In this document: positions 14,163 to 39,982 of the stretch, piece after piece
Numbering within the stretch: the stretch's first letter is position 1
Layout: the number at the start of each line of letters is the position of its first letter
The notes under the pieces: model-generated
Database searches by the model: none
Seen by the model: only the letters and a program-made list of their open reading frames with translations
Told to the model about the DNA's origin: nothing
Assembly: GCA_040767805.1 (NCBI GenBank)
Contig: JAXGNU010000010.1
Location: 1-58,048 of the forward strand
Direction of reading: 5' to 3'
DNA length: 58,048 nt
Source of the DNA: Thermovirgaceae bacterium
GTDB taxonomy: Bacteria > Synergistota > Synergistia > Synergistales > Thermovirgaceae
Program-made: the position numbers and the translations under genes

Positions 14163-14239
14163 TGCCGCCTCCAGTTTTTTTCCTTGTATCCTACCTTGGA
14201 AGCCTCCGACGAGCCTTGGCCCGGCCTCCCGGCTCCCGT

Positions 14240-14290
14240 AAAAAGGAACCCCGCAAGATCCCCAGGGGGGTGGGGAGGATGCGGGGTCCC
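14240..14290 (-). terminator. Hairpin with U-tract between tupA and tupB
   Basis: GGAACCCCGCA (14245-14255) pairs with TGCGGGGTCCC (14280-14290); followed by TTTTT on the minus strand. Confidence 0.5.
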
Positions 14291-14311
14291 CTGCTGATTG
14301 GCAAAGCCCGT

Positions 14312-15136
14312 TTACTTCGCGTTAGGGACAAACAGGGGTTTGCCTAGAAGGCTGAACTCCCCGATCATCTTCTGGACCTTGTCGGAGCGCATCCAGTCGG
14401 AAAATTTCAAGGCCAGGTCGTAACGGAGATGGTCTCCCCTTACCGGGTTGACGGCGATAACGCTGTACTGGTTGAAGAGCGCTTCATCGCCCTCGACCAG
14501 TATCACCAAGGGGGGGTTGCCCTTGTAGTTGTCCTCGTACTTTATGAAGGTGCCCCTGTCGGTCAAGGTGTAGCCGACCTTCTCGGCTGCTATGTTGATC
14601 GTATCGAGCATGCCCTGCCCGGTTTGGATGTACCAGTTCTCCTTCTCGGGTTGACCGTATCCAAATCTCTCCCAAAGGTCTAGTTCCAGGACGTGGGTGC
14701 CGGATTTATCACCCCGGCTGGCGAAGGGCGCCCCCTTGGTAGCGATAGAGATAAACGCCTCTTTAACGGTTTTGCCCTTGATCTTGGCAGGGTCTGATGG
14801 GGGACCGATTATTATGAAATCGTTGTACATGACCTGTCGGCGGTTGACCCCATAGCCGTCCTGAACGTACTGCTTTTCCACTTCGGGGGCGTGGACAAGG
14901 AGGACGTCCACATCGAGATTTTTACCCAATTCGAGGGCCTTTCCGGTCCCTACTGAAACCCACTGGAGTTCGATCCCCGTATCCTTGAGAAACTCCGGGG
15001 CCAGGTAGTCCAGAAGTCCCGTGTTGTCCGTGCTGGTCGTAGTGGCCATGCGCAACACTTCGGCGGAAAAAGCGGAATAAGCTGCGATGGAAAGGACGAG
15101 AATCGAAAAGAAGAGAATCCTTAAAGAACGTTTCAT
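14312..15136 (-). CDS. tupA: Tungstate ABC transporter substrate-binding protein
   Basis: Signal peptide; ATTTSTDNTGLL TupA signature; VGTGKAL and SRGDKSGTH motifs. Confidence 0.94.
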   Translation of the reverse strand: MKRSLRILFFSILVLSIAAYSAFSAEVLRMATTTSTDNTGLLDYLAPEFLKDTGIELQWVSVGTGKALELGKNLDVDVLLVHAPEVEKQYVQDGYGVNRRQVMYNDFIIIGPPSDPAKIKGKTVKEAFISIATKGAPFASRGDKSGTHVLELDLWERFGYGQPEKENWYIQTGQGMLDTINIAAEKVGYTLTDRGTFIKYEDNYKGNPPLVILVEGDEALFNQYSVIAVNPVRGDHLRYDLALKFSDWMRSDKVQKMIGEFSLLGKPLFVPNAK

Positions 15137-21101: not shown

Positions 21102-22097
21102 ATGTACAAGATCAGGGTCCTGAACAGCGAAGATCTGAAAAAACTTTTGGACATCAAGGACGTCATCTCCGCCGTGGAGACCGCTTATGAGCAGTATTCC
21201 AGGGGCGAGGCTGGGCTTTTTCCCGTCATCGCCCATGAATTCGAGCGGGGGTCCCGGGAGCTGGATATCAAGTCGGGGTTCCTCTCAGGGACAGGCCTCG
21301 CGGGGCTCAAGGTGATCGGGTACGTGGCCGACAACCCGGAGAAGCGGAGGATACCGGCCATATCGGGGATCGTCATCGTGCTCAGCCTTGAGACGGGTAG
21401 ACCGGTGGGCATGCTGGACGGCATGATCATCACCAATATCAGGACTGGAGCCGCTGGTGCCATTGGCGCGAAGCATCTCGCCAGGGAGGGATCCAGCAAT
21501 ATCCTGGTGGTCGGCACCGGTGCCCAGGGGAGGGTCCAGGTACAAGGCCTGACCAAGGTCCTCCCAGGGATCGAGGTTGTACGAGTTGCGGGGAGGGATC
21601 CCGAGAAACTCTCCCGGTTCGTGGTCGAAATGTCAGCTCTCTACCCCCGGATACACTTCCAGGAGATCCCGATGGAAGGGCTCCAGGAGGCCGTCTCCCT
21701 GTCCGATGTCGTCGTGACCTGCACACCTTCCCACGAGCCTTTCATCAGGGCGGAATGGGTCCGTCCCGGGACCCACATCAACGCGATAGGCGCCGACTTT
21801 CCCGGTAAACAGGAATTGGACGAGCACCTGCTGCCCCTTGCCCGGCTCGTCGTCGACAGTAAGGCTCAATCCCTGGAGATAGGTGAGTTTCAGACGGCCT
21901 TCAAAAAGGGGCTCATCGGGGAGTCCGACGTGATCGAGATCGGGAGCATCTTGTCCTCCGAAGCCCGGGGGAGAGAAAACGATGAGGAGATCACCATCTT
22001 TGACACCTCCGGTATGGCCCTCCAGGATATCGTCACCGCCAATCTCGCGCTGGTCAGGGCCCTCGAACGCGGGATAGGTTCTCTGGTGAACCTGTAA
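21102..22097 (+). CDS. Ornithine cyclodeaminase / mu-crystallin family protein
   Basis: TNIRTGAAGA, VGTGAQG, GTHINAIGAD and FDTSGMALQD motifs. Confidence 0.9.
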   Translation: MYKIRVLNSEDLKKLLDIKDVISAVETAYEQYSRGEAGLFPVIAHEFERGSRELDIKSGFLSGTGLAGLKVIGYVADNPEKRRIPAISGIVIVLSLETGRPVGMLDGMIITNIRTGAAGAIGAKHLAREGSSNILVVGTGAQGRVQVQGLTKVLPGIEVVRVAGRDPEKLSRFVVEMSALYPRIHFQEIPMEGLQEAVSLSDVVVTCTPSHEPFIRAEWVRPGTHINAIGADFPGKQELDEHLLPLARLVVDSKAQSLEIGEFQTAFKKGLIGESDVIEIGSILSSEARGRENDEEITIFDTSGMALQDIVTANLALVRALERGIGSLVNL

Positions 22098-22115
22098 CGT
22101 CGGGGGTGGTTCTTC

Positions 22116-23099
22116 ATGCTGATAACCCCAGAGATGAGGGACGTGCTCAAGGCGGCGAGGTTTCTCGAGGGCAGGATAAGGAAAACCCCCGTCGAGAAGT
22201 CTTACCCCCTTTCGGACATGGCGGGCTCCGAGGTATTCCTCAAGTGGGAGAATCAACAGCTTTGCGGTTCCTTCAAAGTAAGGGGAGCCCTTAACAAGAT
22301 GTATTCACTCACCCCCCTGGAAAGGGGTAGGGGAGTCATTACCGCCTCATCGGGGAATCATGCCCAGGGCGTCGCCATGGCGGCAAGCCTTCTCGGCGTC
22401 AGGGCGGTCATCTGTGTCCCCGGTTCGTGTCCCGATACGAAGAGGGAAGCGATCCTCTCGAGGGGCTCAGGGTTGGTCGACCTCAGGGTCATCGGGCGCT
22501 TTTACGATGAAGCCGAGGCCGAGGCCAAGGCAGTTGCCGAAAGAGACGGGCTCGTCTATGTCTCGGCCTACGAAGATCATCATATCGTCAGCGGCCAGGG
22601 GACCCTGGGCCTTGAGTTCCTGATGGAGGTGCCCGACCTGGACCTGTTGATCGTTCCGATCAGCGGCGGAGGGCTGATCTCCGGGGTTGCTACGGCGGCC
22701 AGGGCCCTGAGGCCCGGCATAGAGGTCATAGGAGTCCACGCCTCGGCCAACCCCTCCTGGAAGGAGGCCTGGAAGAACTGTGCCGTGGTGCCGGTGGCGG
22801 AGAGCGATACCTATGCTGATGCCCTTTCGGGAGGGGCATCGGGGATACTTTTCCCCTTGGTCCGGAAGATAGTGTCGGGTCTTTCCGACGTTTCGGAGCA
22901 CGAGATAGCGAAGGCGATCGTTTTTTTACACTCAAACCATCACCAGGTCGTCGAGGGCGCCGGTTCCATCGGTGTGGCCGCGGTACTGGCCCGGCGGATC
23001 GAAACCGGCGGCCGGAAGACAGGTATAGTCATAAGCGGGGGCAATATAAGCGACGGGACAATCCTCAAGGCTTACGCGGAAGCGGGTGATGTCAAGTGA
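22116..23099 (+). CDS. Threonine/serine dehydratase family PLP enzyme (no ACT domain)
   Basis: LKWENQQLCGSFKVRGA, SSGNHAQG, GQGT, SGGGLISG and ISGGN motifs. Confidence 0.9.
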   Translation: MLITPEMRDVLKAARFLEGRIRKTPVEKSYPLSDMAGSEVFLKWENQQLCGSFKVRGALNKMYSLTPLERGRGVITASSGNHAQGVAMAASLLGVRAVICVPGSCPDTKREAILSRGSGLVDLRVIGRFYDEAEAEAKAVAERDGLVYVSAYEDHHIVSGQGTLGLEFLMEVPDLDLLIVPISGGGLISGVATAARALRPGIEVIGVHASANPSWKEAWKNCAVVPVAESDTYADALSGGASGILFPLVRKIVSGLSDVSEHEIAKAIVFLHSNHHQVVEGAGSIGVAAVLARRIETGGRKTGIVISGGNISDGTILKAYAEAGDVK

Positions 23100-23311
23100 G
23101 CGGTGAAGGTGGGGAAGAAAGAGGCAAGGGGGGTGAGAGAAAGCATTCACCCTTGACGGCGCTCCTGTTCTTGACCGTTACGTTGGCCCTGGCCGTCAAG
23201 TTACTGATTAACGTCCCCTTTTTTCGGCAATTCTTTTCGGGTTACGGTAAGTTCGTCCTCCTCCCGGTGTTGTTCTACCTGGGATACGTTGGTATCCACC
23301 GAAAAAGCTAA
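23096..23311 (+). CDS. Small hypothetical membrane protein
   Basis: GTGA overlap with the upstream stop; two hydrophobic segments; 71 aa. Confidence 0.5.
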   Translation: MSGEGGEERGKGGERKHSPLTALLFLTVTLALAVKLLINVPFFRQFFSGYGKFVLLPVLFYLGYVGIHRKS

Positions 23312-23470
23312 GGTCTTCCCATTACGCCTTCCAGCCCTTACGTTCGCTGGGGGCGCCGGTGATCCATTGTCTTCACCCCGGGTGCCCGGCAGCCTCGCCC
23401 CGCTTCCATGGGCCCTCTCCTTCTTCTTGCCGAGGTTAAAGGCGCCAGACCCGTCGAGGCTTCGCTCAGG

Positions 23471-23995
23471 CTATACTTCCCGGAAAGCCGTTGAAGGTGG
23501 CGACGGCAGGTCCCTGATCTCCTCCCTGGACTCGACCACTTTCAACTTGGCCGCCGCAGCGTCCTCCCAGACCTTTTCATGGACCTCTTCGTCGAAAAGG
23601 GCAATGATCCTGGCCGCGAAAAGCGCCGCATTCCGGGCAGCCCCTATCCCCATCGCCCCCACGGGGACGCCCGGCGGCATCTGGGCCACCGAGAGCAACG
23701 CGTCCATGCCTCCTAAGGTTCCCGCCGGTGCGGGGACCCCAATGACCGGGAGGGTGGTATGGGCGGCCAGCGCCCCGGGGAGAGCGGCCGAAAGACCTGC
23801 CACGGCGATGATGACCTTGAGGCCCCTCGCCCTGGCGTTCCTCGCGTAGTTGACCACGTCGTCGGGGGTGCGGTGGGCTGAAGCCACCGTCATCTCAAAA
23901 GGTATCCCCAGGGTCTCGAGGACTTCCTTGGTCTTGACCCCCAGCTCGAGGTCCGAAATTGAGCCCAGGACTATTCCGGCAACCGGTCCTTCCAA
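23471..23995 (-). CDS. purE: AIR carboxylase / N5-CAIR mutase PurE
   Basis: GSISD, SAHRTP, PVIGVP and QMPPGVPV motifs. Confidence 0.93.
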   Translation of the reverse strand: MEGPVAGIVLGSISDLELGVKTKEVLETLGIPFEMTVASAHRTPDDVVNYARNARARGLKVIIAVAGLSAALPGALAAHTTLPVIGVPAPAGTLGGMDALLSVAQMPPGVPVGAMGIGAARNAALFAARIIALFDEEVHEKVWEDAAAAKLKVVESREEIRDLPSPPSTAFREV

Positions 23996-25272
23996 GGCGT
24001 TCCACCACCTTTCAGCGCGATGTCGCTTCTGAACCTGGCCCCTTGAAAGCTGATCCTGTCAACAGCCCTATAGGCCTTTGAACGGGCATCGTCTATGCTT
24101 TTCCCCGTTCCGACCACCGTAAGGACCCTTCCCCCGGAGGTGACCATCCTCCCGGCTTGATCCCGTGCGGTTCCCGAGTGGAAGATGAACGTGCCCTCTT
24201 CACCTTGCAGTTCGGCGAGTCCCGACAAGGGGTGCCCTTTCTCGTAGGGACCGGGGTAGCCTCCCGAGGCGAGGACCACGCCAACGGCGGTCCTGGACGA
24301 CCCTTGGGGGGGGAGGCCGCCGAGGGAGCCCCCGGCGCAGGCTTCTGCCAGGAGCGCGAAGTCGCCGTCGTAAGCGGGCAGTACCACCTGCGTCTCGGGG
24401 TCGCCCATCCGGACGTTGTATTCGAGGACCCCCGCATCCCCTTCCCGATCGATCATAAGGCCGAAATACAGCACCCCCCTGAAGGGGATGGATTCTTTTT
24501 TCAGCCCCGACACGGTGGGTTCGATAACCCTGTCGATGACTCTCTCCATGAAAGGTCCGTCCGCCCAGGGGACGGGGGCGAAGGCACCCATGCCTCCCGT
24601 GTTGGGGCCCTTGTCACCGTCAAAGGCCCTCTTATGGTCCTGGCTCGTGGGCAGAACGTGAAAAGAGTCTCCGTCGGTCAACACCAACACGGTCAGTTCT
24701 TCCCCGGGAAGATGGTCTTCGATCACCACCTTTTCCCCCGCCCGGCCCAGGAGTCCCTTGACCAGGAGGCCGGCGCAAGTGTCCCTTGCCTCCAGGAATG
24801 ATCCCATTATGAAGGCGCCCTTGCCGGCCGCGAGCCCGTCGGCCTTCACCACGTAGGGCGGCCGCCTCTTGAGGAGGGCCTTTTCAGCCTGGTCCAGGTT
24901 TTCACAGATGTCGAAATCGGCAGTGGGTATCCCATGCCTGGACATGAAAAGTTTCGCGAAGGCCTTGCTGCCTTCGAGCATGGCTCCCCTTTTCCCGGGA
25001 CCGAGGACGGAAAAGCCCTCTTCCCTTAAAACATCGGCCAACCCAGACACTAGGGGAGCTTCCGGCCCGATGACGACCAGGTGGGGAGACAGGGAGCGCG
25101 CCAAGTCGACGGTCATCGCCGGGTCGGAAATATCCAGCCGGTGGACCGTGGCTGTCTTTTCGATGCCGGCGTTGCCGGGAGCGCAATGGACTGCACTTAC
25201 CGAGGGAGACCTCGATAGGGCCCAGCAGAGGGCGTGTTCCCTGCCGCCGCCACCCAGGACAAGGGTTCTCAT
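23971..25272 (-). CDS. purD: Phosphoribosylamine--glycine ligase
   Basis: GGGGREHAL, KADGLAAGKG, GPNTGGMG and EYNVRMGDPE motifs. Confidence 0.96.
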   Translation of the reverse strand: MRTLVLGGGGREHALCWALSRSPSVSAVHCAPGNAGIEKTATVHRLDISDPAMTVDLARSLSPHLVVIGPEAPLVSGLADVLREEGFSVLGPGKRGAMLEGSKAFAKLFMSRHGIPTADFDICENLDQAEKALLKRRPPYVVKADGLAAGKGAFIMGSFLEARDTCAGLLVKGLLGRAGEKVVIEDHLPGEELTVLVLTDGDSFHVLPTSQDHKRAFDGDKGPNTGGMGAFAPVPWADGPFMERVIDRVIEPTVSGLKKESIPFRGVLYFGLMIDREGDAGVLEYNVRMGDPETQVVLPAYDGDFALLAEACAGGSLGGLPPQGSSRTAVGVVLASGGYPGPYEKGHPLSGLAELQGEEGTFIFHSGTARDQAGRMVTSGGRVLTVVGTGKSIDDARSKAYRAVDRISFQGARFRSDIALKGGGTPWKDRLPE

Positions 25273-25287
25273 GGTTCGATCACTCCC

Positions 25288-26802
25288 TCAGTGGCGGAAG
25301 GTTCTCCACCCGCTGATGAACATGCTGACACCAAGTTTCGCGGCGATATTCTTGATGTCATCGTCCCTTATGGAGCCCCCCGGCTGTATCACCGCGGTGA
25401 TCCCGGCTTCGGCGGCCGCCTCGATGCTGTCGGGGAAGGGGAAGAACGCGTCGGAACCCAAGACCGCGCCGGCAGCCTTCCCCCCCGCTTGCAGACAAGC
25501 CCACTTAACAGCGTCTACCCGGCTCGTGAATCCTCGCCCCAGTCCAACGGTCATGCCCTCGCGGACGATCGATATGGAGTTGCTCTTGCCAAGGGCAGCC
25601 GCTTTCCAAGCCAGGAGCAAGTCGGCCCAGAGGTCGCCCCTGGGCTCACCCACCCATTCCCCCGAGTCGGGGTCCGGCAGCGGGGGGGTAATGTCATCCT
25701 GGACAAGGGTGCCGCTCCAGGTGCTCAAAAGTGAAGTGCCGCTGACATGTACGCCGTCCCATTCCAAGAGACGCAGGTTCGAAGCCAGCGCCCTGATCGC
25801 CTCTTCCGGTGAAGGACGTTGCGCCACCAGCACTTCGGAGAACTGCTCCGCCAAGCGCCGCGCGACGCGAGATCCACTTCCCCTGGTGAAGGCGATCACG
25901 CCGCCGAAGGCCGGAAACCGGGTCGCAGTCAAAGGCTTGGCAAGCGTCGAGGGCGTCTTCCGGATACGGCCCCGCAGGGCGTCGTGCTTGATGATCACGC
26001 AGGCGCAATCAGCGTGGGAGAAGGTCCATCGCCTTCATGGCGCAGTCGATATCGAGCAGGTTGTTGTACAAAGGGGTTTCCCGGATACCAGCCTCCAGGG
26101 TGTGTCCTCCAGGGGGTTCCCGTAGAGCGATGCCCGTTGGTGAGGGTTTTCGCCGTAGCGCAGATCGAACCTCTTGGAGAGAGGCAGGACGCGAAGGGGG
26201 GCGAAGGGTTCTTGCCTGCCGCAGGATCTCGAGAGGCCTTCGTGGATAACGGCGTCGTAGTGAGAGGTCTCCAGGAAGGCCCTGACGGCGAGTCTTTCCC
26301 TCGTGGGGAGTGTGACGTTGCCCTCGGACCTGATCTCTTCCACCACGGCGGCGTAGTCCCCAGGGTCCGTAACGGGAACCACGTGACGGAAATTTTTCGC
26401 GGCGGCCCGGATCAGGGTGACCCCCCCGATATCGATATGCTCCAGCAGTTCATCGAGGGCGGCGCCCTTTTTCAGGGTTTCCTCGAAGGGGTAAAGATTG
26501 CACACGACCATATCGATCATGGGAATCCCGTATTTTTCAACATCGGCCTTGTCACCCTCGAAATGTCTTCGCGCCAGGATCCCGCCGAAGACCGAGGGGT
26601 GAAGGGTTTTGACCCTGCCGCCAAGCAAATGAGGGTACCCTGTAAGATCTTCCACCTCCTTGACGGGCACACCCGCCTCCCTGATGTGCTTCGCGGTCCC
26701 GGAACTGGAGACGATCTCCCAACCCAGGTCGGCCAGGCCCTTCGCCAGGCCGGCCACGTTTCTCTTGTCGAAGACCGAGATAAGAGCGCGCTTCTGGCCC
26801 AT
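25288..26802 (-). pseudogene. purH: Bifunctional AICAR transformylase/IMP cyclohydrolase, frameshifted in this sequence
   Basis: N-part RALISVFDK, GRVKTLHP, DIGGVTLIRAAAKN, LRYGENPHQ; C-part SDAFFPFPD, IQPGGSIRD, RTFRH; YNNLLD and DCDPVS lie in other frames around 25900-26070. Confidence 0.85.
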
Positions 26803-26816
26803 TACAGGTTCTCCTT

Positions 26817-27388
26817 TCAGCGCCTACGACCCAACAGGTCGATCAGAGCCCTGGTATAGAGGACGTGCTCCACTCGGTGGATGCGGTCCTCCAGCGTTTC
26901 AAGTGTATCACCTGGGTGGATCCTTACAGGCTCCTGGGCGAGGATCTCTCCGTGGTCAACTTCCTCGTCGACGAGATGGACCGTGACACCGGTCACCTTC
27001 ACCCCTTTCTCATAGGCCGCTCTTATGGAGTCCCTGCCGGGGAAGGAGGGAAGCAGCGAGGGGTGGATGTTGACGATCCTACCCTTCCTGGGGGCGACGA
27101 ACCGCGGGGAAAGGATCCTCATGAACCCGGCGAGGACCACCCATTCGGCGGAGTACTCTTCAAGAAGTTCTTCCAGGTGTTTTTCGGCCCCCTCCCAGTC
27201 CCTTTCGGGGTTGGGGAGGACATGGGCGGCGATCTTCCTTTGGATCGCGAACAAGAGCCCTCCAGCGTCGGGTTTGTCGCTCGCAACGAAGGCCACTTCA
27301 GCTTTTAGGAGGCCCGATCGGCAGTTGTCCACGATGGAGGCCATGTTCGTCCCCTTGCCGGAAATGAGGATGGCCAGCCGGGGCTTCA

Positions 27389-27389
<1 letters not shown>
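26817..27389 (-). CDS. purN: Phosphoribosylglycinamide formyltransferase
   Basis: ISGKGTN, LAGFMRIL, NIHPSLLPSFPG and GVTVHLVD motifs. Confidence 0.96.
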
Positions 27390-28361
<972 letters not shown>

Positions 28362-28378
<17 letters not shown>

Positions 28379-29738
28379 TATCCTCTCCTCCGTCAAGGTA
28401 GTCCCCGCTGAAGCAGGCCGTGCAGATATCCGACGGCGGGAGACCGATCGATGAGACAAGGTCTTCGATGCCCAGGTAGTGCAGTGAGTCAGCCCCTACC
28501 GTCGCGCGAAGGGTATCGATATCCAGTTTGGCGGCGGCCAATTCTTCGCAGGAGAGCATGTCTATCCCGTAGTAACAGGGGAAGCGGACGGGCGGAGAGG
28601 CGATCCTGATATGGACCCTGGCGGCCCCGTCCTGCCTGATCATGGAAATGGCCCGTTCCACGGTGGTGCCCCTCACGATCGAGTCATCGACGACGGCCAG
28701 TTCCTTGCCGGCGACGAGCTTCTTGATCGGATTGAGCTTGATCCTCACTCCCAGGGCCCTGACTCTCTGGGTGGGCTGGATAAAAGTCCTCCCGACGAAC
28801 CTGTTCCTCACGATGGCCGCTTCGTAACGCTGACCGGCACAACCAGCATAACCGATCGCCGCAATAGTCCCGCTGTCGGGCATGCCCGTGACAATGTCCG
28901 CGGTGGGGCTGGGGGCGCTGGCGGACAATTTGCAACCCAGGGTTTTTCTCACTTCGTAGACGGACTTCCCGTCGACCACGCTGTCAGGCCTGGCAAAATA
29001 GACGTACTCGAAGGCGCAGGAGTAAAGCCGGGAAGCCTCGACGGGGATCCTGATGCTCTTGATCCCGGCCTCATCAATTACGATGATCTCGCCGGGTTTC
29101 ACATCCCTGAGCAGCGAGGCTCCCACTATGTCAAGGGCGCAGCTCTCGGAGGCCACGTAAAAGGTGTCCTCCCGCCTACCCAGGACAAGGGGTCGAAAAC
29201 CCCAGGGGTCGCGGGCTGCGACAAGCCGGTTCCCCAGCAACACCGCGAGGCTGTAGGCTCCCTTGAGGCGAATGAGGGCATCCACCAGCGCGTCCAGGGG
29301 CGGCTTGTGCGACTGGTGCGCCATCAGGTGGATGATGGTCTCCGTGTCGGTGGCGGACTGGAATATGGCGCCCCTCGACTCGAGCATGTGCCTTATTCCC
29401 ATGGCGTTGGTGATGTTGCCGTTATGGGCGACGGCTACAGAGCCCATGGAATAGTTGGCCGTGATCGGGTGGACGTTGGCCAGGCCTGAAGGGCCGGCGG
29501 TCGAGTACCTGACGTGCCCGATAGCTGAGTTCGCCCTCAGGCCAGCCAGGTATTTCTGATCGAGGGCTATGTGAACCAGCCCCATCCCCTTTACGGAGTT
29601 GACTTCGCTCCCTTCGTTGGAGTTCCAGGCAATGCCCGCTGATTCCTGCCCCCGGTGCTGCAGGGCGTAAAGCCCCAGGTAGACGTCCTCCAACACGGAA
29701 TGGCCGTTCTTGCAAAAGGCGCCGAAAACCCCAGCCAT
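28362..29738 (-). CDS. purF: Amidophosphoribosyltransferase with Ala in place of the N-terminal catalytic Cys
   Basis: LQHRGQESAG, GHVRYST, HNGN, CAFEYVYFARPDS, VDDSIVRGTT and CTACF motifs; N-terminus reads MAGVFG. Confidence 0.92.
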
Positions 29739-29742
29739 TGCT

Positions 29743-31896
29743 CTAGGCCCCCTCGACCTTTTCTTGGGATGTCCTTCCGGGGTATATTTCCTGTTTCCCG
29801 AGGGCGAGAACACCGCCGGCTATCTTGCCGATCCTCCTGGCGGGGAAACCCTCCCAGCAAGAAAGGAAAAGGTCGTTCGATCCTTCCGGGACGAGGTAAA
29901 CCGCCCTCGCGCCCCATTCTCCAAAGAGGCGATCGGGGGAAAGGTCGAGGTTCCCGGTGTCGAGACTGATCCCGATCCCCCCGACCCGGCATATCTTCGC
30001 AAGGGCGACCAGCAATCCGCCCCCGGCCACCGCTCGTCCCGCCGCGGCAGCCCCTTCGCGGGCGGTACGCTGGGCCCTTTCCATGAAGGCCCTTTCCTTC
30101 ACGGGGTTGTAGGGTCCCGCGGGGTAGTTGCCGGCCGGGTCGACAACCCTCGAGTAAGCGCTTCCCCCTAAAAACCCTTGTTCTTCTCCCACCAGGAAGA
30201 TCGAACCGGCTTCCAGTCCGGCGGAATCCCCCAGGGGGGTCCTTCCCTCTTCGAGGAGCCCCACGACGGCTATAAGAGGACTGGCAAGGATCTTCCCGTC
30301 AGGGCTTTCATTGTAAAGGCTGACATTGCCCGAAACAACGGGACAGGCGAGGTCGCCGCCCACCGCAGCCAGGCCCTGGACAGAACGCTCCAGCACCCAG
30401 AAGTTCTCTGGGTCTTCCGGCGACGGGAAGTTCAGGCAGTTCGTCATGCCCAGGTGGGCGGCGCCACTCACCCAAAGGGGTCTGAGGCACTTGAGGAAGG
30501 TCTCGGCTGTCCCCAGTAAGGGCTCAAGTTGACATTTCCAGGGGTCCGCATCCATGGTCACCCCCACGAGGTTCCCCTTCGCCGGGACCCGGAAGATGGA
30601 TACGCTTTTACCGGGAGGGGTGATGGTGTTGGACTGGGTCCCGGAGTCGAACCGGCCGAAAATACCGGATTTGTCGGCCAGGTTCGGATCTTCCAGGAGG
30701 GCCGCGAGGGAGCGGGAGACCTCTTCCGAATCGAGAAAACCCGCGCTTTTGACCTCAACGGATGCCCTGGAGGAGGGCTTTTTCGAAGGCCAGTGGATCG
30801 GGGGAGAGCCGCCCCCGACCATCTCCGCCGGGAGGTTGACCACGGTCCTCCCTCCCCGGGTCATGACGAAGTCGCCGTCACCGGTGACTTCACCAATCAC
30901 CGCCCAATCCAGCCGCCACTTGGCGGCAATGGAACCGATCTCATCCAGGTCCTCCTCCTTTACGATGAGGAGCATCCTTTCCTGGGTTTCCGAAAGGGCT
31001 ATCTCCCAGGGCTCCATCTTTTCCTTGAGGGGGACCAGGTCGACGTTTACCAGGATCCCGGTGCCGCTTTTCGAGGCTATTTCGCTCGAGGAGGAAACGA
31101 TCCCCGCGGCCCCCATGTCCTGCATGGCGACTATCAGGCCCTTCGAGTGGATCTCGAGACAGCCTTCGATCAGTCTTTTTGCCAGGAGGGGATTCCCTTT
31201 TGGGATCCGGGGAAGGACCGGGGCCGCTGCGCTGGTCAACTCGGAAGAAGCGAAGGCGGCGCCCGCGACCCCTTCTTTCCCGGTCCTTGAACCTATCATA
31301 ACGGCCCTGTGCCCCGGTTTCGCCGTCTTGGAACTGACGATGCCACCCAGCGGCACCAGCCCGAGGCACATCGCGTTGACCAGGGGGTTGCCGTCGAAGC
31401 ACTCATCATAAACGGTCTTGCCACCTATGGTGGGGACGCCCAGGGTGTTCCCGTACCCGGCGATGCCCTCCACGATCCCATCGGCGGTTTCCGCGGCCCG
31501 GGGTGAATCCTTCCTCCCCAGGCAGAGCCCGTCCAAAAGGGCCACCGGCCTGGCCCCCATGGCCAAGACGTCCCTGACGATACCGCCCACGCCGGTGGCC
31601 GCGCCGTCGTAGGGGGCCACCGCGGAGGGGTGGTTATGGCTCTCCAGTTTGAAGGCAATCCCCCAACCTCCGCCGATATCGACGACGCCGGCGTTCTCCC
31701 CGGGTCCAAGAACAACGAAGTCCCCCTCGGTGGGCAAGCCGGCCAGGAGCCTTCTCGTGGACTTGTAACTGCAGTGCTCGGACCACATTACGCCAAGGAT
31801 CCTGAGTTCAGCCTGGTTCGGTTGCCGTTCCAAGGCTTCGATGATCGCGCTGTATTCGGAATCGCTGAGTCCTACCGACCGGTGGTCAACCTCCAT
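29743..31896 (-). CDS. purL: Phosphoribosylformylglycinamidine synthase, small PurL subunit
   Basis: WSEHCSYKS, ESHNHPS, GAATGVGGI, QDMGAAG, SETQERM and SGNVSLYN motifs; 717 aa. Confidence 0.94.
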   Translation of the reverse strand: MEVDHRSVGLSDSEYSAIIEALERQPNQAELRILGVMWSEHCSYKSTRRLLAGLPTEGDFVVLGPGENAGVVDIGGGWGIAFKLESHNHPSAVAPYDGAATGVGGIVRDVLAMGARPVALLDGLCLGRKDSPRAAETADGIVEGIAGYGNTLGVPTIGGKTVYDECFDGNPLVNAMCLGLVPLGGIVSSKTAKPGHRAVMIGSRTGKEGVAGAAFASSELTSAAAPVLPRIPKGNPLLAKRLIEGCLEIHSKGLIVAMQDMGAAGIVSSSSEIASKSGTGILVNVDLVPLKEKMEPWEIALSETQERMLLIVKEEDLDEIGSIAAKWRLDWAVIGEVTGDGDFVMTRGGRTVVNLPAEMVGGGSPPIHWPSKKPSSRASVEVKSAGFLDSEEVSRSLAALLEDPNLADKSGIFGRFDSGTQSNTITPPGKSVSIFRVPAKGNLVGVTMDADPWKCQLEPLLGTAETFLKCLRPLWVSGAAHLGMTNCLNFPSPEDPENFWVLERSVQGLAAVGGDLACPVVSGNVSLYNESPDGKILASPLIAVVGLLEEGRTPLGDSAGLEAGSIFLVGEEQGFLGGSAYSRVVDPAGNYPAGPYNPVKERAFMERAQRTAREGAAAAGRAVAGGGLLVALAKICRVGGIGISLDTGNLDLSPDRLFGEWGARAVYLVPEGSNDLFLSCWEGFPARRIGKIAGGVLALGKQEIYPGRTSQEKVEGA

Positions 31897-32129
31897 ATCC
31901 CCAACCTCCCTTGATCCCCGTTGTCAAGCACTTCGACAGGGGGTCACCGCCATTAAAGACTGCCATCCCAGTATAGGCCCATCCCGCGGGTACATCCTGC
32001 CGCGGCCGCCAACAACGCCGGGCGGAAGCGCCCCTCCTCAAGGCTCCCTTTCGTCGACAAGCTCGTTGCCTTTGGGCCGCTGACCCTAACGGATCCTCTC
32101 GATGATAAGAAATGACCGGCAAATTACTT

Positions 32130-32160
32130 ACATTATTCGTACTTTAAACTCTAATGTCAA
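32130..32160 (-). promoter_or_regulatory. pur operon promoter with overlapping PurBox-like site
   Basis: Minus strand TTGACA (32160-32155), 17-bp spacer, AATAAT; AAGTACGAATAAT (32144-32132) resembles the Bacillus-type PurBox with its CGAA core. Confidence 0.55.
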
Positions 32161-32335
32161 TATTTCTGAGGATCATGTGAAAGGATGAATGGAAAGTAGG
32201 TCCTATTAGTGTAAATAATAACATTCCATGTTAGAATACCAGGCGTGCCGCGGGAGGTCTCTGATCATCCCCAGTTCGAGGTTTTTCACCGGCCCCCTCG
32301 GCGGGGAATAATAATCGTGAGGAGGAATCGCTTTA

Positions 32336-33158
32336 ATGGAAGGTTTCAAAACTCCCCTGTTATTGAACTAAGCTGAATCGGCATGCCTTACGGCAAAGGC
32401 CAAGGTGGCCTGGAGCATCCCCCAGATGCTCCTCTTGGGGTTCATGGCCGGGTCCTACATTGCTTTCGGGGGATGGCTGATGACCGTCGGCCCTGACCCA
32501 TGACCTTGCCGCCCATGTCGGGCTGGGGTTCTCGAAGTTCCTCGGCGGCGCTATATTCAGCGTCGGACTGATGCTCGTGGTCATCGCCGGGGCTGAACTT
32601 TTCACGGGGAACTGCATGATGCCCCCTTGGAGTCATGGCCGGCTGCATTCCCATGAGCGGAGTCGTCAGGAACTGGTTCTGGGTCTACGTGGCCAACTTG
32701 CTCGGGAGTATTTTCGTGGCATTCTTGATCTTTTATTCCGGTCTCTGGAAGGGGCCCATCGGCATCAACGCTTTCAAGATCGCGGCCGGCAAGATGAGCC
32801 TCCCGTTGGCGAGGCCGTTTTCCGTGGCATCCTTTGTAACTGGCTCGTGGTGCTAGCTGTGTGGATGAGCATGGCGGCCACCGACATCATCGGGAAGATC
32901 TGACCATTTCTTCCCCATCGTAGCCTTCGTCGCCTCCGGTTACGAACACTCCATCACCAACATGTACTTCATGGCCCTGGGGATTCTCCTCAAGAGGCGA
33001 CCCTTCGACCAATAGCTTGGCGCCGGCCTCTCCCAGGAAGTGCTATCCCAGGTCTCGATGGGGGAGTTACCTCCATAACCTGATCCCCGTAACCATAGGC
33101 AACTTGATCGGGGGATCCTGTTTGTGGCTATATTCTACTTCCTGGTCTTCAGGACTAA
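32336..33158 (+). pseudogene. Formate/nitrite transporter (FNT family), multiply frameshifted
   Basis: FNT motifs GAELFTGN, GILCNWLVVLAVW, VASGYEHSITNM and NLIPVTIGNLIGG spread over different frames; GAGGAGG RBS before ATG 32336. Confidence 0.85.
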
Positions 33159-33231
33159 CGCGAGGATATCGTGTAAAGGCATCAAGAGCCGATCCTGTTC
33201 GAACACCCTTGATACCTGCGGCGGCAGCGGC

Positions 33232-33858
33232 GTGATCGACGTTGCCGCCGTCATTCCCACCGGCAGCAGGGTAAAAGGGCTGGAGGAGCCAAGGTATTCC
33301 TCTCACCGTCGGAGGGCGCTGCCTCATCCTGGAGGTCCTCAAAGGGCCCTGTCACTTTTCGACGGGATGTTGTTCCTGTCGAAAGGAAGATAGCGGACCG
33401 CTGGGCGGGATCATCCAGTCCCTGCCGCAAAGAGATCGTGTTAAGACCGTATCTGACCGGGTGGAGGGCCTGGGCCCCCTGGAGGGGATGGCCGTGAGCC
33501 TTGAAACTGAAGGAATGGGCCTTTGTGATGGGGTGCGATATGCCCTGGTCGATCCTGCCGTGGTGAGGTTGATGTGGTCGAAGGGGGAGGATGAGGACGC
33601 CGTCATCACGCGAGAATAGGGGGCTTCCTTGAGCCTCTTCATGCCTTTACCACAAGAGGTGCGTCGACGCTGTGGAAGGGGCCATTTTCGGGAAAAATCC
33701 GGGCACAAGATCACCTCTTTTTTATCCGGATATTTCCCCCTTGTCATCGAGGAGCGGGAGTTCGCCCTCATCCCTGGTTATCATGAATATTTTCCTGAAC
33801 GTTAATACCCCGGAAGATATTCGGTCCTGGCTTGAGGAAAGGCACCGGTGCCCCCTGA
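33232..33858 (+). pseudogene. mobA: Molybdenum cofactor guanylyltransferase (MobA-like), frameshifted
   Basis: VAAVI..G start, DRVEGLGPLEGM and FLNVNTPED motifs in different frames; boundaries approximate. Confidence 0.6.
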
Positions 33859-33907
33859 ATCCTCCGGCACCGGCCCTTTGTGTTCCTCCAAATCCCAGCC
33901 TGCATGT

Positions 33908-33964
33908 GTTCCTCATATAAAGAATCTAAGTGAAGTCCTTCGCTGCCTCACGAAGAAATCTAAG
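33908..33964. repeat. IS left-end motif pair
   Basis: GTTCCTCATATAAAGAATCTAAG and GCTGCCTCACGAAGAAATCTAAG approximate the reverse complement of the right-end motif. Confidence 0.65.
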
Positions 33965-35255
33965 CGACCCTACCGGGATCGGTCTCCTTTCCAGGAGACC
34001 CTTGTTCTTACTCGCAAAGGCCCTGTTGAGCCTGGCCTTGAGCCGGTCCACCTCTTTCTTCAAGTCCGCCAGGTTCAGGGCCTCGAACTGCTCCCTCAGG
34101 GAGGATTTCCTCCTCCGTGACATCTTCCCGAAGCCATCAGGCGCTGGTAGGGCGTCTGGGGTGTGTCGTAGATCTTCCTGACCTTCGCCCCGACCCTAAC
34201 CTTCGAAACCAGCTTCGCCGAGGGAAGGAAGAAGTTCACGTAGAGCCTGTAAGCGTCATAGAGCTCATTCAGGGCCTTTCTGCTCACCTTCCGTATCGTA
34301 CCTGGCATACCCTGCCACCCTTCTTGCCACTGACCAGTTCTTCTGCTCCACGTAGCAGTTGTCGTTCTTGTTCCCTGCCCTTGACCTTGTGAAGGTTATC
34401 CTTTCGTCTTCGCAGTACTTTTGCAGGTGGTGGTTTATGAAGGTCGAATCGTTGTCCGAATCTATGCCCTGCGGAGGAAGGAACGAGCGCTCGATGGATT
34501 TCAGGGCTTCCAGGGTCAGAGCCTGGCCCTGTTCTTGACGGCCCTCAGTTCAGTCCGCCTGAAGCCACGTCGGTGACGTCAGGGTGAAGGCAAATTCTCC
34601 TTTGGCGTTCCCGCCCTCATGGGAAACCAGGTCTATCTCGGCGAAACCCGGTCTCTTTTCGTCCCAGTCGGCAAAGGTCCGTATCGGTATCTTGTGCTTC
34701 AGCAGTGTCCCGGGCTTGGTGGAGGAACGCTCCTTCAGGCGGAGCTTTCTCTTCCGGTCCGCCAGCATGCGGTCTATGGTTGCCGCAGACACGGACATGA
34801 CCTTGTCCCTGGTCTCCGGAGAGGTGAGATCCCCCCGAGCTCAAGCTTTGCAGGACCAGCCATGGAATGGCAGCGGCAAGCCTCTTGCCGCAGATGTAGT
34901 CCATCATCTTCCAAAGCGGAAATGACACAGCGGCCGCTTCACTGTCATAGGTCCTAGGCCTCTTCCTTTTCCCACAGGCCTTATGGCCCTTTCTGTCAAC
35001 TTGCAGGATCAGGGAGGCACCCTGCCGCCCCCAAGGTATAGGCGCCGGCCGAAGAGGCAGAGAAGATGGGGCGTAGTCCCGGTTGTAGCCCGTCGTGGCG
35101 GTAACACAGTCCAATATCCAGGCCCTTCTCCTTCTTCGACGCCCTGCGAGTACTCGTCAGAAGCCTGGACGATCACTTCCTCCTCGCATCGAAAACCTCA
35201 CCCGTCCTTCCTTCCTCCAGGTCATGCCCTTGAAGGAAGATGCTATACCCTTCGG

Positions 35256-35311
35256 CTAGATTCTTAGGTGAGGCAACGTATCGCTTTCGTCTAGATTTTA
35301 GGTGAGGCAAC
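35256..35311. repeat. IS right-end tandem motif pair
   Basis: CTAGATTCTTAGGTGAGGCAAC (35256-35277) and CTAGATTTTAGGTGAGGCAAC (35291-35311). Confidence 0.85.
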
Positions 35312-35381
35312 TCGCACCGATGACATTTCCCCTCCTGTTGGTTAGAATTGGTTTCGTTTCACAAGCCAGAGGTGTCTCAAA

Positions 35382-37199
35382 ATGAAGGTACCCATTGAAC
35401 GCATCAGGAACTTCTGCATCATAGCCCACGTTGACCACGGGAAATCGACCCTCGCCGATCGCCTGCTCGAGGCTACGACCACTATCAATGCCAGGGAGAT
35501 GCGCGAACAGATCCTCGATACCCTGGAGCTCGAACGCGAGCGGGGGATCACGATAAAACTGGTGCCGGTGCAGATGAAGTACAGGGCTTCCGACGGCCTG
35601 GATTACGTCCTGAACCTCATCGACACGCCCGGCCATGTGGATTTCACCTACGAGGTCTCCAGGTCCCTTGCGGCCTGCGAAGGGGCTCTCCTTATCGTGG
35701 ACGCGGCTCAGGGAGTTGAAGCCCAGACCGTGGCCAATGCATACCTTGCCGTCGACCAGGGCCTCGAGATCATTCCCGTCATCAACAAGATCGACCTCCC
35801 TTCGGCCCAGCCCGAGCGGGCCGCGAAAGAAATAGAAGAAGTGGTAGGGCTTGACAGTACGGAGGCCATCATGGCCTCCGCCAAGGAGGGCATCGGGGTA
35901 AAGGAAATTTTGGAAGCAGTGATCAGGAGGATTCCTCCTCCCTCAAAATATCGCCAGGGACCCCTCCAGGCCCTTGTTTTTGACTCCACCTACAACAACT
36001 TCAGGGGGGTCATCTGCTATATAAAGGTGGCCAACGGCTCCATCAGATCCGGCGACATGGTGACCTTCATGGCGACCAGGAGGAATTTCCAGGTAGAGGA
36101 GATAGGGATCTTCGGGCCCGAGATGCGACCCGTCGACGAGTTGGGGCCCGGGGAGGTCGGTTACCTCATCTGCAACATCAAGTCTGTGGAAGAGGCCAGG
36201 GTCGGCGATACGGTTACCAGCCAGAGGAACCCGGCTCCGGCACCTTTGCCTGGATATCGGAAGGTTAAACCCGTGGTGTTCTGTGGCTTTTTCCCCATAG
36301 AAAGGGATGAGTATCCCCAGTTGAGGGATTCTCTCGAAAAATTGCAGATGAACGACGCGGCCCTGTTTTTCGAACCGGAGACCTCCACGGCCCTTGGGTT
36401 TGGCTTCCGGTGCGGGTTCCTCGGGCTTTTGCACATGGAGATCGCGAAGGAACGGCTGAACAGGGAGTTCGGTGTGGACCTGGTCGCCACGGTACCCAAC
36501 GTGGTGTACCAGGTCAAGACTTCGGGCGGCGAGATCATTGAAGCACACCGACCTTCGGACTTTCCGGAAGCCTCTCTTATCGAGGAGGTCCTCGAACCCT
36601 TCATAAAGGTCACCGGTTTCCTCCCGGCGGAATACGTGGGCAAGGTGATGCAACTATGCCAAGACCGCAGGGGCGTCTTCTTGGGGATGGACTACATCAC
36701 ACCCCAGAGAGCCCGCCTGGTCTATGAGCTGCCTCTGGCGGAATTCATAATAGACTTCCATGACAGGCTCAAGTCAGTGACGAGGGGATTCGCCTCGATA
36801 GACTACGAGCATTCCGGTTTCAAGGTCTCCAACCTTGTCAAGGTTGATATCCTTATCGGCGGGGAACCCGTCGATGCTTTCTGCTTTGTATCCCATGCTG
36901 ATCAGGCGTATCACCGCGGCCAGGAAGTGGTCCGGAAGCTCAAGGAGATCATCCCGAGGCAGCTCTTCGAAGTCTCCCTCCAGGCCGCGATAGACAAGAG
37001 GGTGATAGTCCGCCAGAACGTCAAGCCTTTACGCAAAGACGTCCTCGCCAAGTGCTATGGCGGTGATATCACCAGGAAGAGGAAATTGCTCGAAAAGCAG
37101 AAGGAGGGGAAAAAGAGGATGAAACAGATCGGCAGGATATCCTTGCCCCAGGAGGCTTTCCTCGCCTTTCTAAAGGCCGGCGATGAGGAGGAGGAATAA
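35382..37199 (+). CDS. lepA: Translation elongation factor 4
   Basis: AHVDHGKSTLADR, DTPGHVDF, GFRCGFLGLLHM and KCYGGDITRKRKLLEKQK motifs. Confidence 0.98.
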   Translation: MKVPIERIRNFCIIAHVDHGKSTLADRLLEATTTINAREMREQILDTLELERERGITIKLVPVQMKYRASDGLDYVLNLIDTPGHVDFTYEVSRSLAACEGALLIVDAAQGVEAQTVANAYLAVDQGLEIIPVINKIDLPSAQPERAAKEIEEVVGLDSTEAIMASAKEGIGVKEILEAVIRRIPPPSKYRQGPLQALVFDSTYNNFRGVICYIKVANGSIRSGDMVTFMATRRNFQVEEIGIFGPEMRPVDELGPGEVGYLICNIKSVEEARVGDTVTSQRNPAPAPLPGYRKVKPVVFCGFFPIERDEYPQLRDSLEKLQMNDAALFFEPETSTALGFGFRCGFLGLLHMEIAKERLNREFGVDLVATVPNVVYQVKTSGGEIIEAHRPSDFPEASLIEEVLEPFIKVTGFLPAEYVGKVMQLCQDRRGVFLGMDYITPQRARLVYELPLAEFIIDFHDRLKSVTRGFASIDYEHSGFKVSNLVKVDILIGGEPVDAFCFVSHADQAYHRGQEVVRKLKEIIPRQLFEVSLQAAIDKRVIVRQNVKPLRKDVLAKCYGGDITRKRKLLEKQKEGKKRMKQIGRISLPQEAFLAFLKAGDEEEE

Positions 37200-38328: not shown

Positions 38329-38566
38329 CGAGCTTGAGAGGCCCGTGCTGGGCGGGGCGTGTCCTCTCCGGTAGCCCCCGTCGCGTATGCCCTCTCGAAG
38401 ACCGCTTCCTGTCATCGAATGGGCCCAGGCTACCTTTCACCCGTTATACTGATATGGAGGGCGAGGCAAAACCCCAGTCCACCGCTTTGGTATGATCCTG
38501 CCAGGTTTAGTGAATACGGGGCCCGGTCCAAGGCGTGGCCGATCCCCCTTGAGGGAAGGTGCGAAG

Positions 38567-39982
38567 ATGCGGGATGAGATCAAGTCGATGCTCAAGGACC
38601 TGCCCCCGATGGACGAACTGCTCCAGAAACCCTGGACAAGCCGGTACCAGGAAGTCCTCGGTCGCGAAGCCGTCAGATCGACCTTCGCCGATGTGATCGG
38701 CGAGGTCAGGAGGGACCTGCTCAAGGGGCTCATCCATTCCTTTGACCCCGCGCTCATCGAATCGGAGACCAGGGCCCGGTTGGAAAAACGCTCCAGGAAG
38801 AGCCTGAGGAGAGTGGTGAACGCCACCGGGGTCGTCATCCACACGAACCTGGGAAGGTCCTGCCTTGGGAGGGAGGTCCTGGAAAATGTGAGGGCGGTTT
38901 CGGCCTCTTACAGCAACCTGGAATATGACCTCGAAGAGGGGGCCAGGGGACAAAGGCACTCCCATGTCGAATGGCTCCTGTCAAGCGTCACCGGAGCCGA
39001 CGCGGCCCTGGTCGTAAATAACAACGCCGGCGCCGTCCTGCTTTGCCTGGCTGCTTTGGGGCGGGGCAAGGAGGTCATCGTCTCCAGGGGAGAACTGGTG
39101 GAGATAGGAGGCTCCTTCAGGATCCCCGACATTATGGATTTTTCCGGGGCCATCTTAAGAGAGGTTGGGACGACCAACAGGACACACCTCCCCGATTATC
39201 TCAAAGCCATAAACACCCAGACCGCCATGATCCTCAAGGTGCACCCTTCCAACTTCAGGGTGGTGGGTTTTCATTCGGAAGCCTCGAGGGAGGAGCTGGC
39301 GGCCCTGGCCCGGGAGAAGGAACTCATCTTCATGGAGGACCTGGGGAGCGGGGTGGTGGCGGATCTATCGCCCTGGGGACTCCAGGGCGAACCCACGGTC
39401 AGGCAATGCGTCGAGTCAGGAGTGGACCTGGTGACCTTCTCCGGTGACAAACTGCTCGGCGGCCCCCAGATAGGCGTTATCGTCGGGAGAAGCCAGCTGG
39501 TGGAGAGGATCCGACATTATCCCTTGTTGAGGGCGATTAGGGTTGACAAGATGACCCTGGCCGCTTTTGAGGCGACCCTGAGGCTTTACTTGGAAGGCAG
39601 AACGGGCGAGATCCCCACATTGAGAATGATCTCCCAGCCGGAGGAAACATTGAGGAAAAGGGCCCGCAACCTGACCTCCATGATCAGGCGAGTGACGGAC
39701 TTGCAGGCAAGGGTGGTCATGACCCAGGATGCGGTCGGCGGGGGAGCTTACCCCGCCGCGGTCCTCGAGGGTTTCGGGGTCGAGGTGGAACCGCCGGAAG
39801 GGGTTTCTGACGGTTCGGCCCTTGAACGGCTTAGAAATGCCCCTGTCCCCGTGATCGCCTCGGCAAAAGAGGGGAAGATCCTCCTCCATGTCAGGACCAT
39901 GCTTGACGGGGACGGGATGGATGTGATCGGGGCGCTAAAAGACCTGTCGCCCAGGGAGGCCGGCAATGATGGAGAAGACTGA
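38567..39982 (+). CDS. selA: L-seryl-tRNA(Sec) selenium transferase
   Basis: NATGVVIHTNLGR, VSRGELVEIGGSFRIPD, EDLGSG and FSGDKLLGGPQ motifs. Confidence 0.96.
   Translation: MRDEIKSMLKDLPPMDELLQKPWTSRYQEVLGREAVRSTFADVIGEVRRDLLKGLIHSFDPALIESETRARLEKRSRKSLRRVVNATGVVIHTNLGRSCLGREVLENVRAVSASYSNLEYDLEEGARGQRHSHVEWLLSSVTGADAALVVNNNAGAVLLCLAALGRGKEVIVSRGELVEIGGSFRIPDIMDFSGAILREVGTTNRTHLPDYLKAINTQTAMILKVHPSNFRVVGFHSEASREELAALAREKELIFMEDLGSGVVADLSPWGLQGEPTVRQCVESGVDLVTFSGDKLLGGPQIGVIVGRSQLVERIRHYPLLRAIRVDKMTLAAFEATLRLYLEGRTGEIPTLRMISQPEETLRKRARNLTSMIRRVTDLQARVVMTQDAVGGGAYPAAVLEGFGVEVEPPEGVSDGSALERLRNAPVPVIASAKEGKILLHVRTMLDGDGMDVIGALKDLSPREAGNDGED

Follow-up and report, generated by a model that had tools for sequence, protein, structure and literature searches.

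The window analysed here, a stretch of 58,048 nucleotides (nts) from a metagenome-assembled genome of a Thermovirgaceae bacterium (Synergistota; GCA_040767805.1, contig JAXGNU010000010.1), carries a purine biosynthesis operon in which purF encodes alanine at the place of the amino-terminal cysteine nucleophile. The PurF concerned is probably an ammonia-dependent phosphoribosylamine synthase, within a purine pathway that has likely gone over from glutamine to free ammonia. Two further glutaminase functions of the same pathway are affected in the lineage. The genes for PurS and PurQ, the partners of the small PurL, have been deleted from the operon, and GMP synthase (GuaA) has lost the histidine of its glutaminase triad. 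In what follows the genome carrying the window is G000; G250 to G253 are genomes of its genus and G255 is from another genus.

The amino terminus of PurF

Located on the minus strand, the gene encodes 458 amino acids and opens with ATG GCT GGG GTT TTC GGC. An earlier note on this DNA, made from its letters, had remarked on the start MAGVFG in place of MCGxxG, and both the minus-strand reading and alignment to mature B. subtilis PurF bear it out. Residue 3 of the query aligns with residue 2 of the mature B. subtilis chain, which puts Ala2 at the position of Cys1. The start is not miscalled so as to hide an upstream cysteine, since the TAG stop codon of purL ends at 29743, 4 nts upstream of the purF ATG, a Shine-Dalgarno-like run, GAGGGGG, is just upstream of that ATG, and the homologous ATG is followed by TGC in cysteine-bearing relatives. 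An alternative upstream start, GTG at 29813, was rejected: it overlaps purL and brings no cysteine, and the relatives use the downstream ATG.

The protein is a full-length match to the purF equivalog TIGR01134 (469.6 bits against a cut-off of 350), with residues 3–447 on profile positions 2–431/432, and the cysteine position alone drops out of the match. Its amino-terminal domain is assigned by Pfam to the class II (Ntn) amidotransferase family (GATase_7, 69.7 bits; GATase_6, 67.1; GATase_4, 24.9), and the solved structures nearest to it are those of B. subtilis PurF (E 6e-126; 1gph, 1ao0), Arabidopsis ASE2 and E. coli PurF (1ecf). The loop that binds phosphoribosyl pyrophosphate (PRPP) is present, avvddsivrgtt aligning with vmvddsivrgtt of 1gph, and weak matches to the phosphoribosyltransferase (PRTase) family also span residues 326–380. 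Four cysteines (in yscaf, fpcyyg and ctac) align with cysteine residues of B. subtilis PurF, presumably the [4Fe-4S] cluster ligands of PurF of that type. The remaining motifs of the glutamine site, HRGQE, VRYST, HNGN and TDTE, are all intact, so that the 1gph alignment and the motif check agree with what the earlier note had said of the PRPP site, the Fe-S cysteines and the other Ntn motifs. Glutamine hydrolysis, the half-reaction that defines PurF, is predicted to be absent, because Cys1 is Ala.

The alanine codon in relatives and in other assemblies

Identity to the purF of the window is 98% for G251, about 90% for G252 (where the gene is split over two contig ends), 85–86% for G250 and G253, and 79% for G255. 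Codon 2 is GCT in G251 and GCG in G252, both for alanine, and TGC in G250, G253 and G255. A change from TGC to GCN requires at least two base changes, and alanine has since been kept through a synonymous change between GCT and GCG.

Among the best 120 database relatives, 114 have cysteine at position 2 (113 MCG and one VCG). The six that do not are P0001, which is 98% identical and starts MAG, P0058, P0070 and P0081, which start MGG, and P0095 and P0101, which start MSG. The 90% cluster of P0001 has 15 members listed; the amino terminus is available for 11 of these, ten of which read MAG and one MSG (P0124, on 6 contigs). PurF variants with the MAG start occur on 70, 53, 28, 8 and 2 contigs (NCBI, JGI, ENA, Logan). 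The purL–purF junction is present in 20 public runs from 14 studies, all of them sludge or digester metagenomes and 6 of them RNA libraries. Contigs of the DNA runs X1, X7 and X11 and of metatranscriptome X15 have no letter in purF that differs from the window, and record 21 of X15 spans 28354–30138, again with no difference. Independent assemblies and contigs derived from RNA thus have GCT or GCG rather than TGY as codon 2, and the alignment of PurF amino termini across related genomes likewise upholds the earlier note.

A single copy under purifying selection

No second purF was found in G000 (80.6% complete), G251 (87%) or G252 (96%). The next match is a glmS-like frame of 618–674 amino acids, so the search for a second, Cys1-bearing purF, which the earlier note had had in mind, came out in favour of its claim.

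The cysteine-less purF is not a decaying gene and is under strong purifying selection. Between the window and G251, both cysteine-less (dS 0.17), the ratio of nonsynonymous to synonymous substitution rates (dN/dS) is 0.057, from 10 nonsynonymous and 52 synonymous changes, which is as low as in the cysteine-bearing pair G250–G253 (0.065). The two domains give 0.067 (amino-terminal) and 0.047 (carboxy-terminal), and the flanking purL and purM give 0.246 and 0.193 for the same two genomes.

The lineage-specific amino-acid changes in purF number 26 on the cysteine-less stem and 5 in the sister lineage. The same bias towards speed-up, though weaker, is present in the flanking genes (43 and 17 for purL, 16 and 9 for purM), and against their joint 59:26 the excess in purF is modest. 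Four of the changes, A272S, Y314F, T394M and P395L, are in the PRTase domain and fixed in the cysteine-less clade, at positions that are 98–100% conserved in 118 cysteine-bearing Synergistota PurFs.

Deletion of purS, purQ and purC

In the cysteine-less lineage purS, purQ and the operon's purC have been deleted just upstream of purL. The operon order in G253 and G255 is purC-purS-purQ-purL-purF-purM-purN-purH-purD, and G250 has the same order from its contig end. In the window and G251 purL is without purC-purS-purQ upstream. A 276-amino-acid gene, a 245-amino-acid gene and then lepA are the neighbours upstream of the purL region common to the window, G251 and G253. The profile for purQ (TIGR01737) gives 272–311 bits adjoining purL in G250, G253 and G255; in G000, G251 and G252, where the gene is absent, its best score is 15–17 bits. 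The gene for PurS (PF02700) is similarly present in the first three and absent from the others. G000 therefore has a small purL without the purS and purQ that make up the smPurL/PurS/PurQ system with it.

A tblastn search for remnants of purC, purS and purQ in all of G000 and in the upstream region of G251 gave none (E > 0.3), bar a paralog on contig C15. This is a divergent protein of the SAICAR_synt family, 288 amino acids long (C15:12288–13154 in G000; L030:1474–2340), and is present in all six genomes checked. It scores 89.8 bits with Pfam and 79 bits with TIGR00081, below the latter's cut-off of 189.9, and it adjoins a radical SAM gene and genes for DNA repair, with no purine genes nearby. 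There is no Pfam match for the open reading frames (ORFs) upstream of purL (31886–32122, 32360–32617, 32442–32654, 33067–33342, 33352–33771 and 34617–35114), the one of 78 amino acids at the deletion junction included, and an Rfam scan of 22000–36000 gave no family at gathering score. Contigs of X7 and X11 bridge 25200–32355 with the arrangement unchanged, the deletion junction included.

GuaA and the other amidotransferases

The GuaA of G000 is encoded outside the window, at C14:18005–19567. In G000, G251 and G252 FLPE stands where relatives (G250 and G253, and also G210 and G020, two of the Synergistota genomes considered below) have FHPE, the leucine codons being CTC or CTT against CAC. The histidine of the triad is thus leucine, and of Cys-His-Glu the cysteine and the glutamate are kept. 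Further changes confined to the same three genomes are GMQ to GMP, and GSQY to GFQQ or GFSQ. Identity to G253 is 60.7% for the glutamine amidotransferase (GATase) part and 80.6% for the synthetase part. In the cysteine-less pair dN/dS is 0.31 for the former and 0.18 for the latter; in the cysteine-bearing sister pair it is 0.15 and 0.045.

The PyrG of G251 keeps GICLGMQ and FHPE, and GlmS of G000 starts MCGIVG. A glutamine synthetase frame of about 730 amino acids is present in G000, G251, G250, G253 and G255, and was not found in G252. A genome-wide loss of glutamine use is ruled out by the glutamine synthetase of G000 and G251 and by the intact PyrG and GlmS sites, and the glutaminase change is specific to the purine pathway. 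Class I GATase matches are limited to GuaA in G000, and there are two each in G251 and G252.

Two genomes of genus g15 that are without purS and purQ, G039 and G042 (94% and 97% complete), have no match to the model of the GuaA amino-terminal glutaminase at E 1e-15. This domain of their GMP synthase may be absent or degenerate.

Recurrence in Synergistota

A pattern scan for Ala or Gly at PurF position 2 in 268 Synergistota genomes matched five: G000, G251 and G252 with Ala, and G210 and G238 with Gly. The single purF of G210 (65% complete) has an MGG start and is in an operon purC-purL-purF-purM-purN with a gap of 27 nts between purC and purL; there is neither purS nor purQ in its purC-purL-purF operon and no purQ was found in the genome. 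G238 (contigs C226, C170 and C212) carries a truncated Gly-type purF and, on separate contigs, a canonical purF and purQ-purL; either the bin is mixed or the genome may possess a true cysteine-less paralog. Many genomes of family f9 have two or three matches to the purF model at E < 1e-30.

Position 2 of the 129 Synergistota PurFs aligned is Cys in 118, Gly in 5, Ala in 3 and Ser in 3. The seven older Gly/Ser sequences, from the clade that includes G210, have substitutions at three sites where the cysteine-bearing proteins (118/118) never vary: the Asn of HNGN to Asp (N106D), N108 to Ala, Ser or Leu, and T80 of VRYxT to Gln, Ser or Pro. The HNGN asparagine is, we take it, the oxyanion-hole residue of E. 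coli PurF. Within the window's own clade T80A occurs in G251, P0001 and P0124, and not in the window. In a FastTree phylogeny of 106 rows (23 near-identical rows, P0101 among them, were left out) the window clade is far from the Gly clade, each with support 100, and three state changes are needed.

A scan for purQ in G000 and 217 other genomes at least 85% complete found it in 198 of the 218. The 20 genomes without it comprise 12 that are also without purF, the three Ala genomes, G020, G039 and G042, and also G115 and G137, which are uninformative as purC is directly before purF with no adjacent purL. Where a cysteine-less PurF is the sole copy, the genome is without purQ (4/4 genomes, in 2 independent lineages). 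The reverse does not hold, and strict coupling of purQ loss with cysteine loss is ruled out by G020, G039 and G042. Since every sole cysteine-less PurF is in a purQ-less genome and three purQ-less genomes keep the cysteine, the distribution suggests that loss of purS and purQ came first and that of the PurF cysteine after it.

Probable ammonia-fed purine synthesis and its alternatives

That PurF uses ammonia we infer by analogy with published Cys1 mutants (PMC3261824, PMC12017579). In a passage of PMC3261824 that cites Mei and Zalkin 1989, E. coli PurF with C1A or C1S is described as having lost glutamine use and kept ammonia use. Excerpts of PMC12017579 implicate NH3-dependent synthesis of phosphoribosylamine in vivo, dependent on NH4+ in the medium, and propose that external NH3 enters PurF through the glutamine site. 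For GMP synthetases, a section of PMC10526850 has all those studied using exogenous ammonia, and calls the triad invariant.

With the pathway fed by ammonia, free NH3 would enter the PRPP site of PurF via the emptied glutamine site and the channel (the route is that of published work), PurL alone would aminate formylglycinamide ribonucleotide, and the synthetase domain of GuaA would aminate adenylylated xanthosine monophosphate, in each case with NH3. Hoskins and colleagues are said to have reported in 2004 that isolated small PurL has NH3-dependent activity. Such use of ammonia could be affordable because the digester habitat is ammonia-rich: the organisms would be amino-acid fermenters in ammonia-rich digester sludge, and the ATP for glutamine would be saved. 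PurS and PurQ would have been lost first and the PurF cysteine next.

The reading of PurF as ammonia-dependent, already put forward in the earlier note, has gained support from the purifying selection on the gene, the loss of purS and purQ, the loss of the GuaA histidine and the independent Gly lineage. It covered one third of the pattern; the purS/purQ and GuaA losses are beyond it. A more extensive proposition is that glutamine has been wholly removed from purine nucleotide synthesis, with PurF, formylglycinamidine ribonucleotide (FGAM) synthase and GMP synthase all on free ammonia. The removal would have been stepwise and repeated in Synergistota from ammonia-rich digesters (first purS/purQ, next the PurF cysteine and last the GuaA histidine), and adaptive in sparing energy-poor fermenters the ATP that glutamine costs. 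To this we lean, if only slightly.

A number of points weigh against an ammonia-fed pathway. Ammonia use is something that we infer, and the ammonium richness of the sludge or digester habitat is general background. Glutamine is not unavailable, since both G000 and G251 have a glutamine synthetase. The GATase domain of GuaA is only partly relaxed (0.31 against 0.15) and keeps its cysteine, and GuaA is intact in G210. G020, G039 and G042 have purC-purL-purF without purS or purQ and yet keep MCG. The deletion took the canonical purC, and as the divergent SAICAR_synt paralog that alone remains is below the TIGR00081 cut-off and has no purine neighbours, the PurC step is unproven. No purB was found in G000 at its 80.6% completeness; it is present in G251 and G252. 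The DNA runs that reproduce purF may include the window's source sample, and DNA can be present in an RNA library. The Km of GMP synthetases for NH4+ is high, 10–174 mM by the values in a section of PMC10526850.

Decay is the alternative that has most to be said for it, though it is unlikely: purines would be salvaged, the operon would be a relic, and the cysteine loss, the purC-purS-purQ deletion and the altered GuaA would be early pseudogenisation. The deletion of the canonical purC would fit, as would the roughly doubled dN/dS of GuaA and the 26:5 excess of purF changes over the sister lineage, which includes four PRTase positions that are invariant elsewhere. That Synergistota can lose the pathway altogether is seen from the 12/218 scanned genomes with neither purF nor purQ. 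However, the purF dN/dS of 0.057 between two cysteine-less genomes (dS 0.17) is as low as that of a cysteine-bearing pair, the alanine has been kept through the synonymous change GCT versus GCG, and the lineage-wide speed-up is also in the flanks (purL 43:17, purM 16:9). Also, G251 has purL, purM, purN, purD and purH intact, as have the run contigs over their extent, and the operon is present in metatranscriptome contigs. All three lesions are confined to glutaminase functions with the synthase parts spared, a pattern that random decay would not give. An operon kept for a low-flux side product, be it aminoimidazole ribonucleotide (AIR) for the thiamine pyrimidine or some other intermediate, could make do with weak NH3 activity. 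This improbable explanation would account for tolerance of poor NH3 kinetics and for the canonical purC being gone, but thiC, whose product uses AIR, was found in 0/4 genomes searched (G000, G251, G252, G253), on which ground a thiamine-only role was rejected; genes acting after AIR are kept (purH, purB in G251 and G252, and a purE-like ORF), and the GuaA change is unrelated to AIR.

Glutamine could also still be the donor, either through a separate glutaminase docking on PurF and PurL or through another nucleophile, such as the Ser of the MSG variants. The intact HRGQE, VRYST, HNGN and TDTE of the window, the dN/dS of 0.067 in the amino-terminal domain and the Ser at position 2 of variant P0124 (6 contigs) are as such retention would have them. 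It is nevertheless very improbable: neither Ala nor Gly offers a nucleophilic side chain, nothing like purQ remains, the sole class I GATase match in G000 is GuaA (G251 and G252 have two each), the invariant Thr80 is Ala in close relatives, the HNGN Asn is lost in the older Gly/Ser clade, and both C1S and C1A of E. coli are without glutamine activity in the passage of PMC3261824 already referred to. There is next to no probability of the alanine codon being an assembly or sequencing artefact of the metagenome-assembled genome. Local assembly errors are indeed nearby (the purH indels at 25779–26069; divergence from all four runs beyond 32355), but the same GCT codon is in G251 and GCG in G252, the MAG amino terminus is on the 70-, 53- and 28-contig variants in several archives, and purF is without difference in contigs of the four runs. 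We consider an artefact already refuted.

Relation to known systems

Canonical bacterial PurF (B. subtilis 1gph and 1ao0, E. coli 1ecf) shares with the window protein its two domains, the VDDSIVRGTT loop, the four aligned cysteines and a locus between purL and purM; it differs in having Cys1 where the window protein has Ala. The laboratory mutants of E. coli PurF Cys1 mentioned in parts of PMC3261824 and PMC12017579 (C1A and C1S, Mei and Zalkin 1989; Cys to Phe, Mantsala and Zalkin 1984) are of the same substitution class. The change in the window is, by contrast, natural, fixed across species, in a sole copy that is under selection, and accompanied by two further losses of purine amidotransferase function.

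The closest published precedent is the cysteine-less PurF′ of Crenarchaeota. These paralogs have Ala or Val for the cysteine, are among purine genes, and were proposed without test to be ammonia-dependent (Brown et al. 2011, PMC3261824). Absence of the amino-terminal cysteine and a location among pur genes both hold for the window purF. PurF′, however, is always beside a normal PurF in the same genome (PMC3261824), whereas no canonical copy was found in G000, G251 or G252, the host here is bacterial, and the losses extend to purS/purQ and the GuaA triad. The PurL of the window is an ordinary small PurL of the kind in the smPurL–PurS–PurQ complex of Gram-positive bacteria, Thermotoga and archaea, but both partner genes are absent from G000. 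NH3-dependent NadE, AsnA and the ATPPase of the archaeal two-subunit GMP synthetase are likewise synthases that use free ammonia with no glutaminase, according to sections of PMC10526850 and the abstract of PMC3376133. They are long-established separate families; the window lineage, in contrast, would have disabled three purine glutaminases recently and within one genus. In the main texts of a literature largely outside subscription journals we found no sole cysteine-less PurF, no small PurL without PurS and PurQ, and no GuaA without the triad histidine, the archaeal PurF′ being the one comparable case.

The remainder of the operon and the neighbouring genes

The features of the operon in the window are given in Table 1. 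The likely ATG of purM, at 28381, overlaps the end of purF. A purE-like ORF follows purD (the label comes from its own sequence alone).

Table 1. Purine operon features in the window
Feature	Positions	Strand	Evidence or remark
purF codon 2, GCT (Ala)	29733..29735	minus	occupies the position of the N-terminal nucleophile Cys
purF	28362..29738	minus	Cys1 to Ala; PRPP motif and Fe-S cysteines intact
purL (small; FGAM synthase subunit II), 717 amino acids	29743..31896	minus	NF002290 718.9 bits; TIGR01736 691.7 bits
Deletion junction, ~230 nts in place of purC-purS-purQ	31897..32125		blastn, tblastn, ORF maps
purM (AIR synthase)	27389..28381	minus	TIGR00878 369.8 bits; match from residue 31 of a 356-amino-acid ORF
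purN (glycinamide ribonucleotide (GAR) formyltransferase)	26817..27389	minus	TIGR00639 196.6 bits
purH	25288..26802	minus	split by small indels, 25779-26069
purD (GAR synthetase; consumes the phosphoribosylamine made by PurF)	23971..25272	minus	TIGR00877 463.7 bits

In the window purH is broken into two frames (26035–26802 and 25288–25998) by about eleven indels of 1–3 nts between 25779 and 26069. G251 and the contigs of the four runs all have an intact gene (508 amino acids), which marks the break as an error of the assembly. A reading of purH as a pseudogene that points to pathway decay was ruled out, the indels being absent from the four runs and G251.

At 32355 the contigs of the four runs all diverge from the window and go on into an intact gene for the 276-amino-acid membrane protein, which we guess to be of the formate/nitrite transporter family. 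In the window itself (32355–35314) that gene and its 245-amino-acid neighbour are fragmented, identity to G251 being 84% there against 92.6% elsewhere, and about 1.4 kb (33900–35314) has no counterpart in G251. Further off, selA and selB (selenocysteine incorporation) are side by side at 38492–41900, a tungstate ABC transporter resembling tupABC is at 12448–15136, and 4180–6834 encodes an 884-amino-acid protein like A-adding tRNA nucleotidyltransferase, its 635 bits being below the model cut-off of 1440.

Implications

In textbooks the nitrogen at N9 and N3 of purines and in the 2-amino group of guanine has to come from glutamine, and the ability of PurF, PurL and GuaA to use NH3 as a side reaction is mostly regarded as a laboratory curiosity. 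The lineage described here is seemingly a natural knock-out, in which a single pathway has had three glutaminase functions disabled and the synthase parts are under selection. If the interpretation is right, ammonia would be able to carry the full purine flux in vivo, and the enzymes would be natural, NH3-tuned material for the study of ammonia channels. The labels ‘amidophosphoribosyltransferase’ and ‘glutamine-hydrolysing GMP synthase’ could then misstate the substrate, and pathway tools would score such genomes as being without the FGAM synthase step. For the organisms themselves, the combination would be a genomic marker of high-ammonium life in anaerobic digesters.

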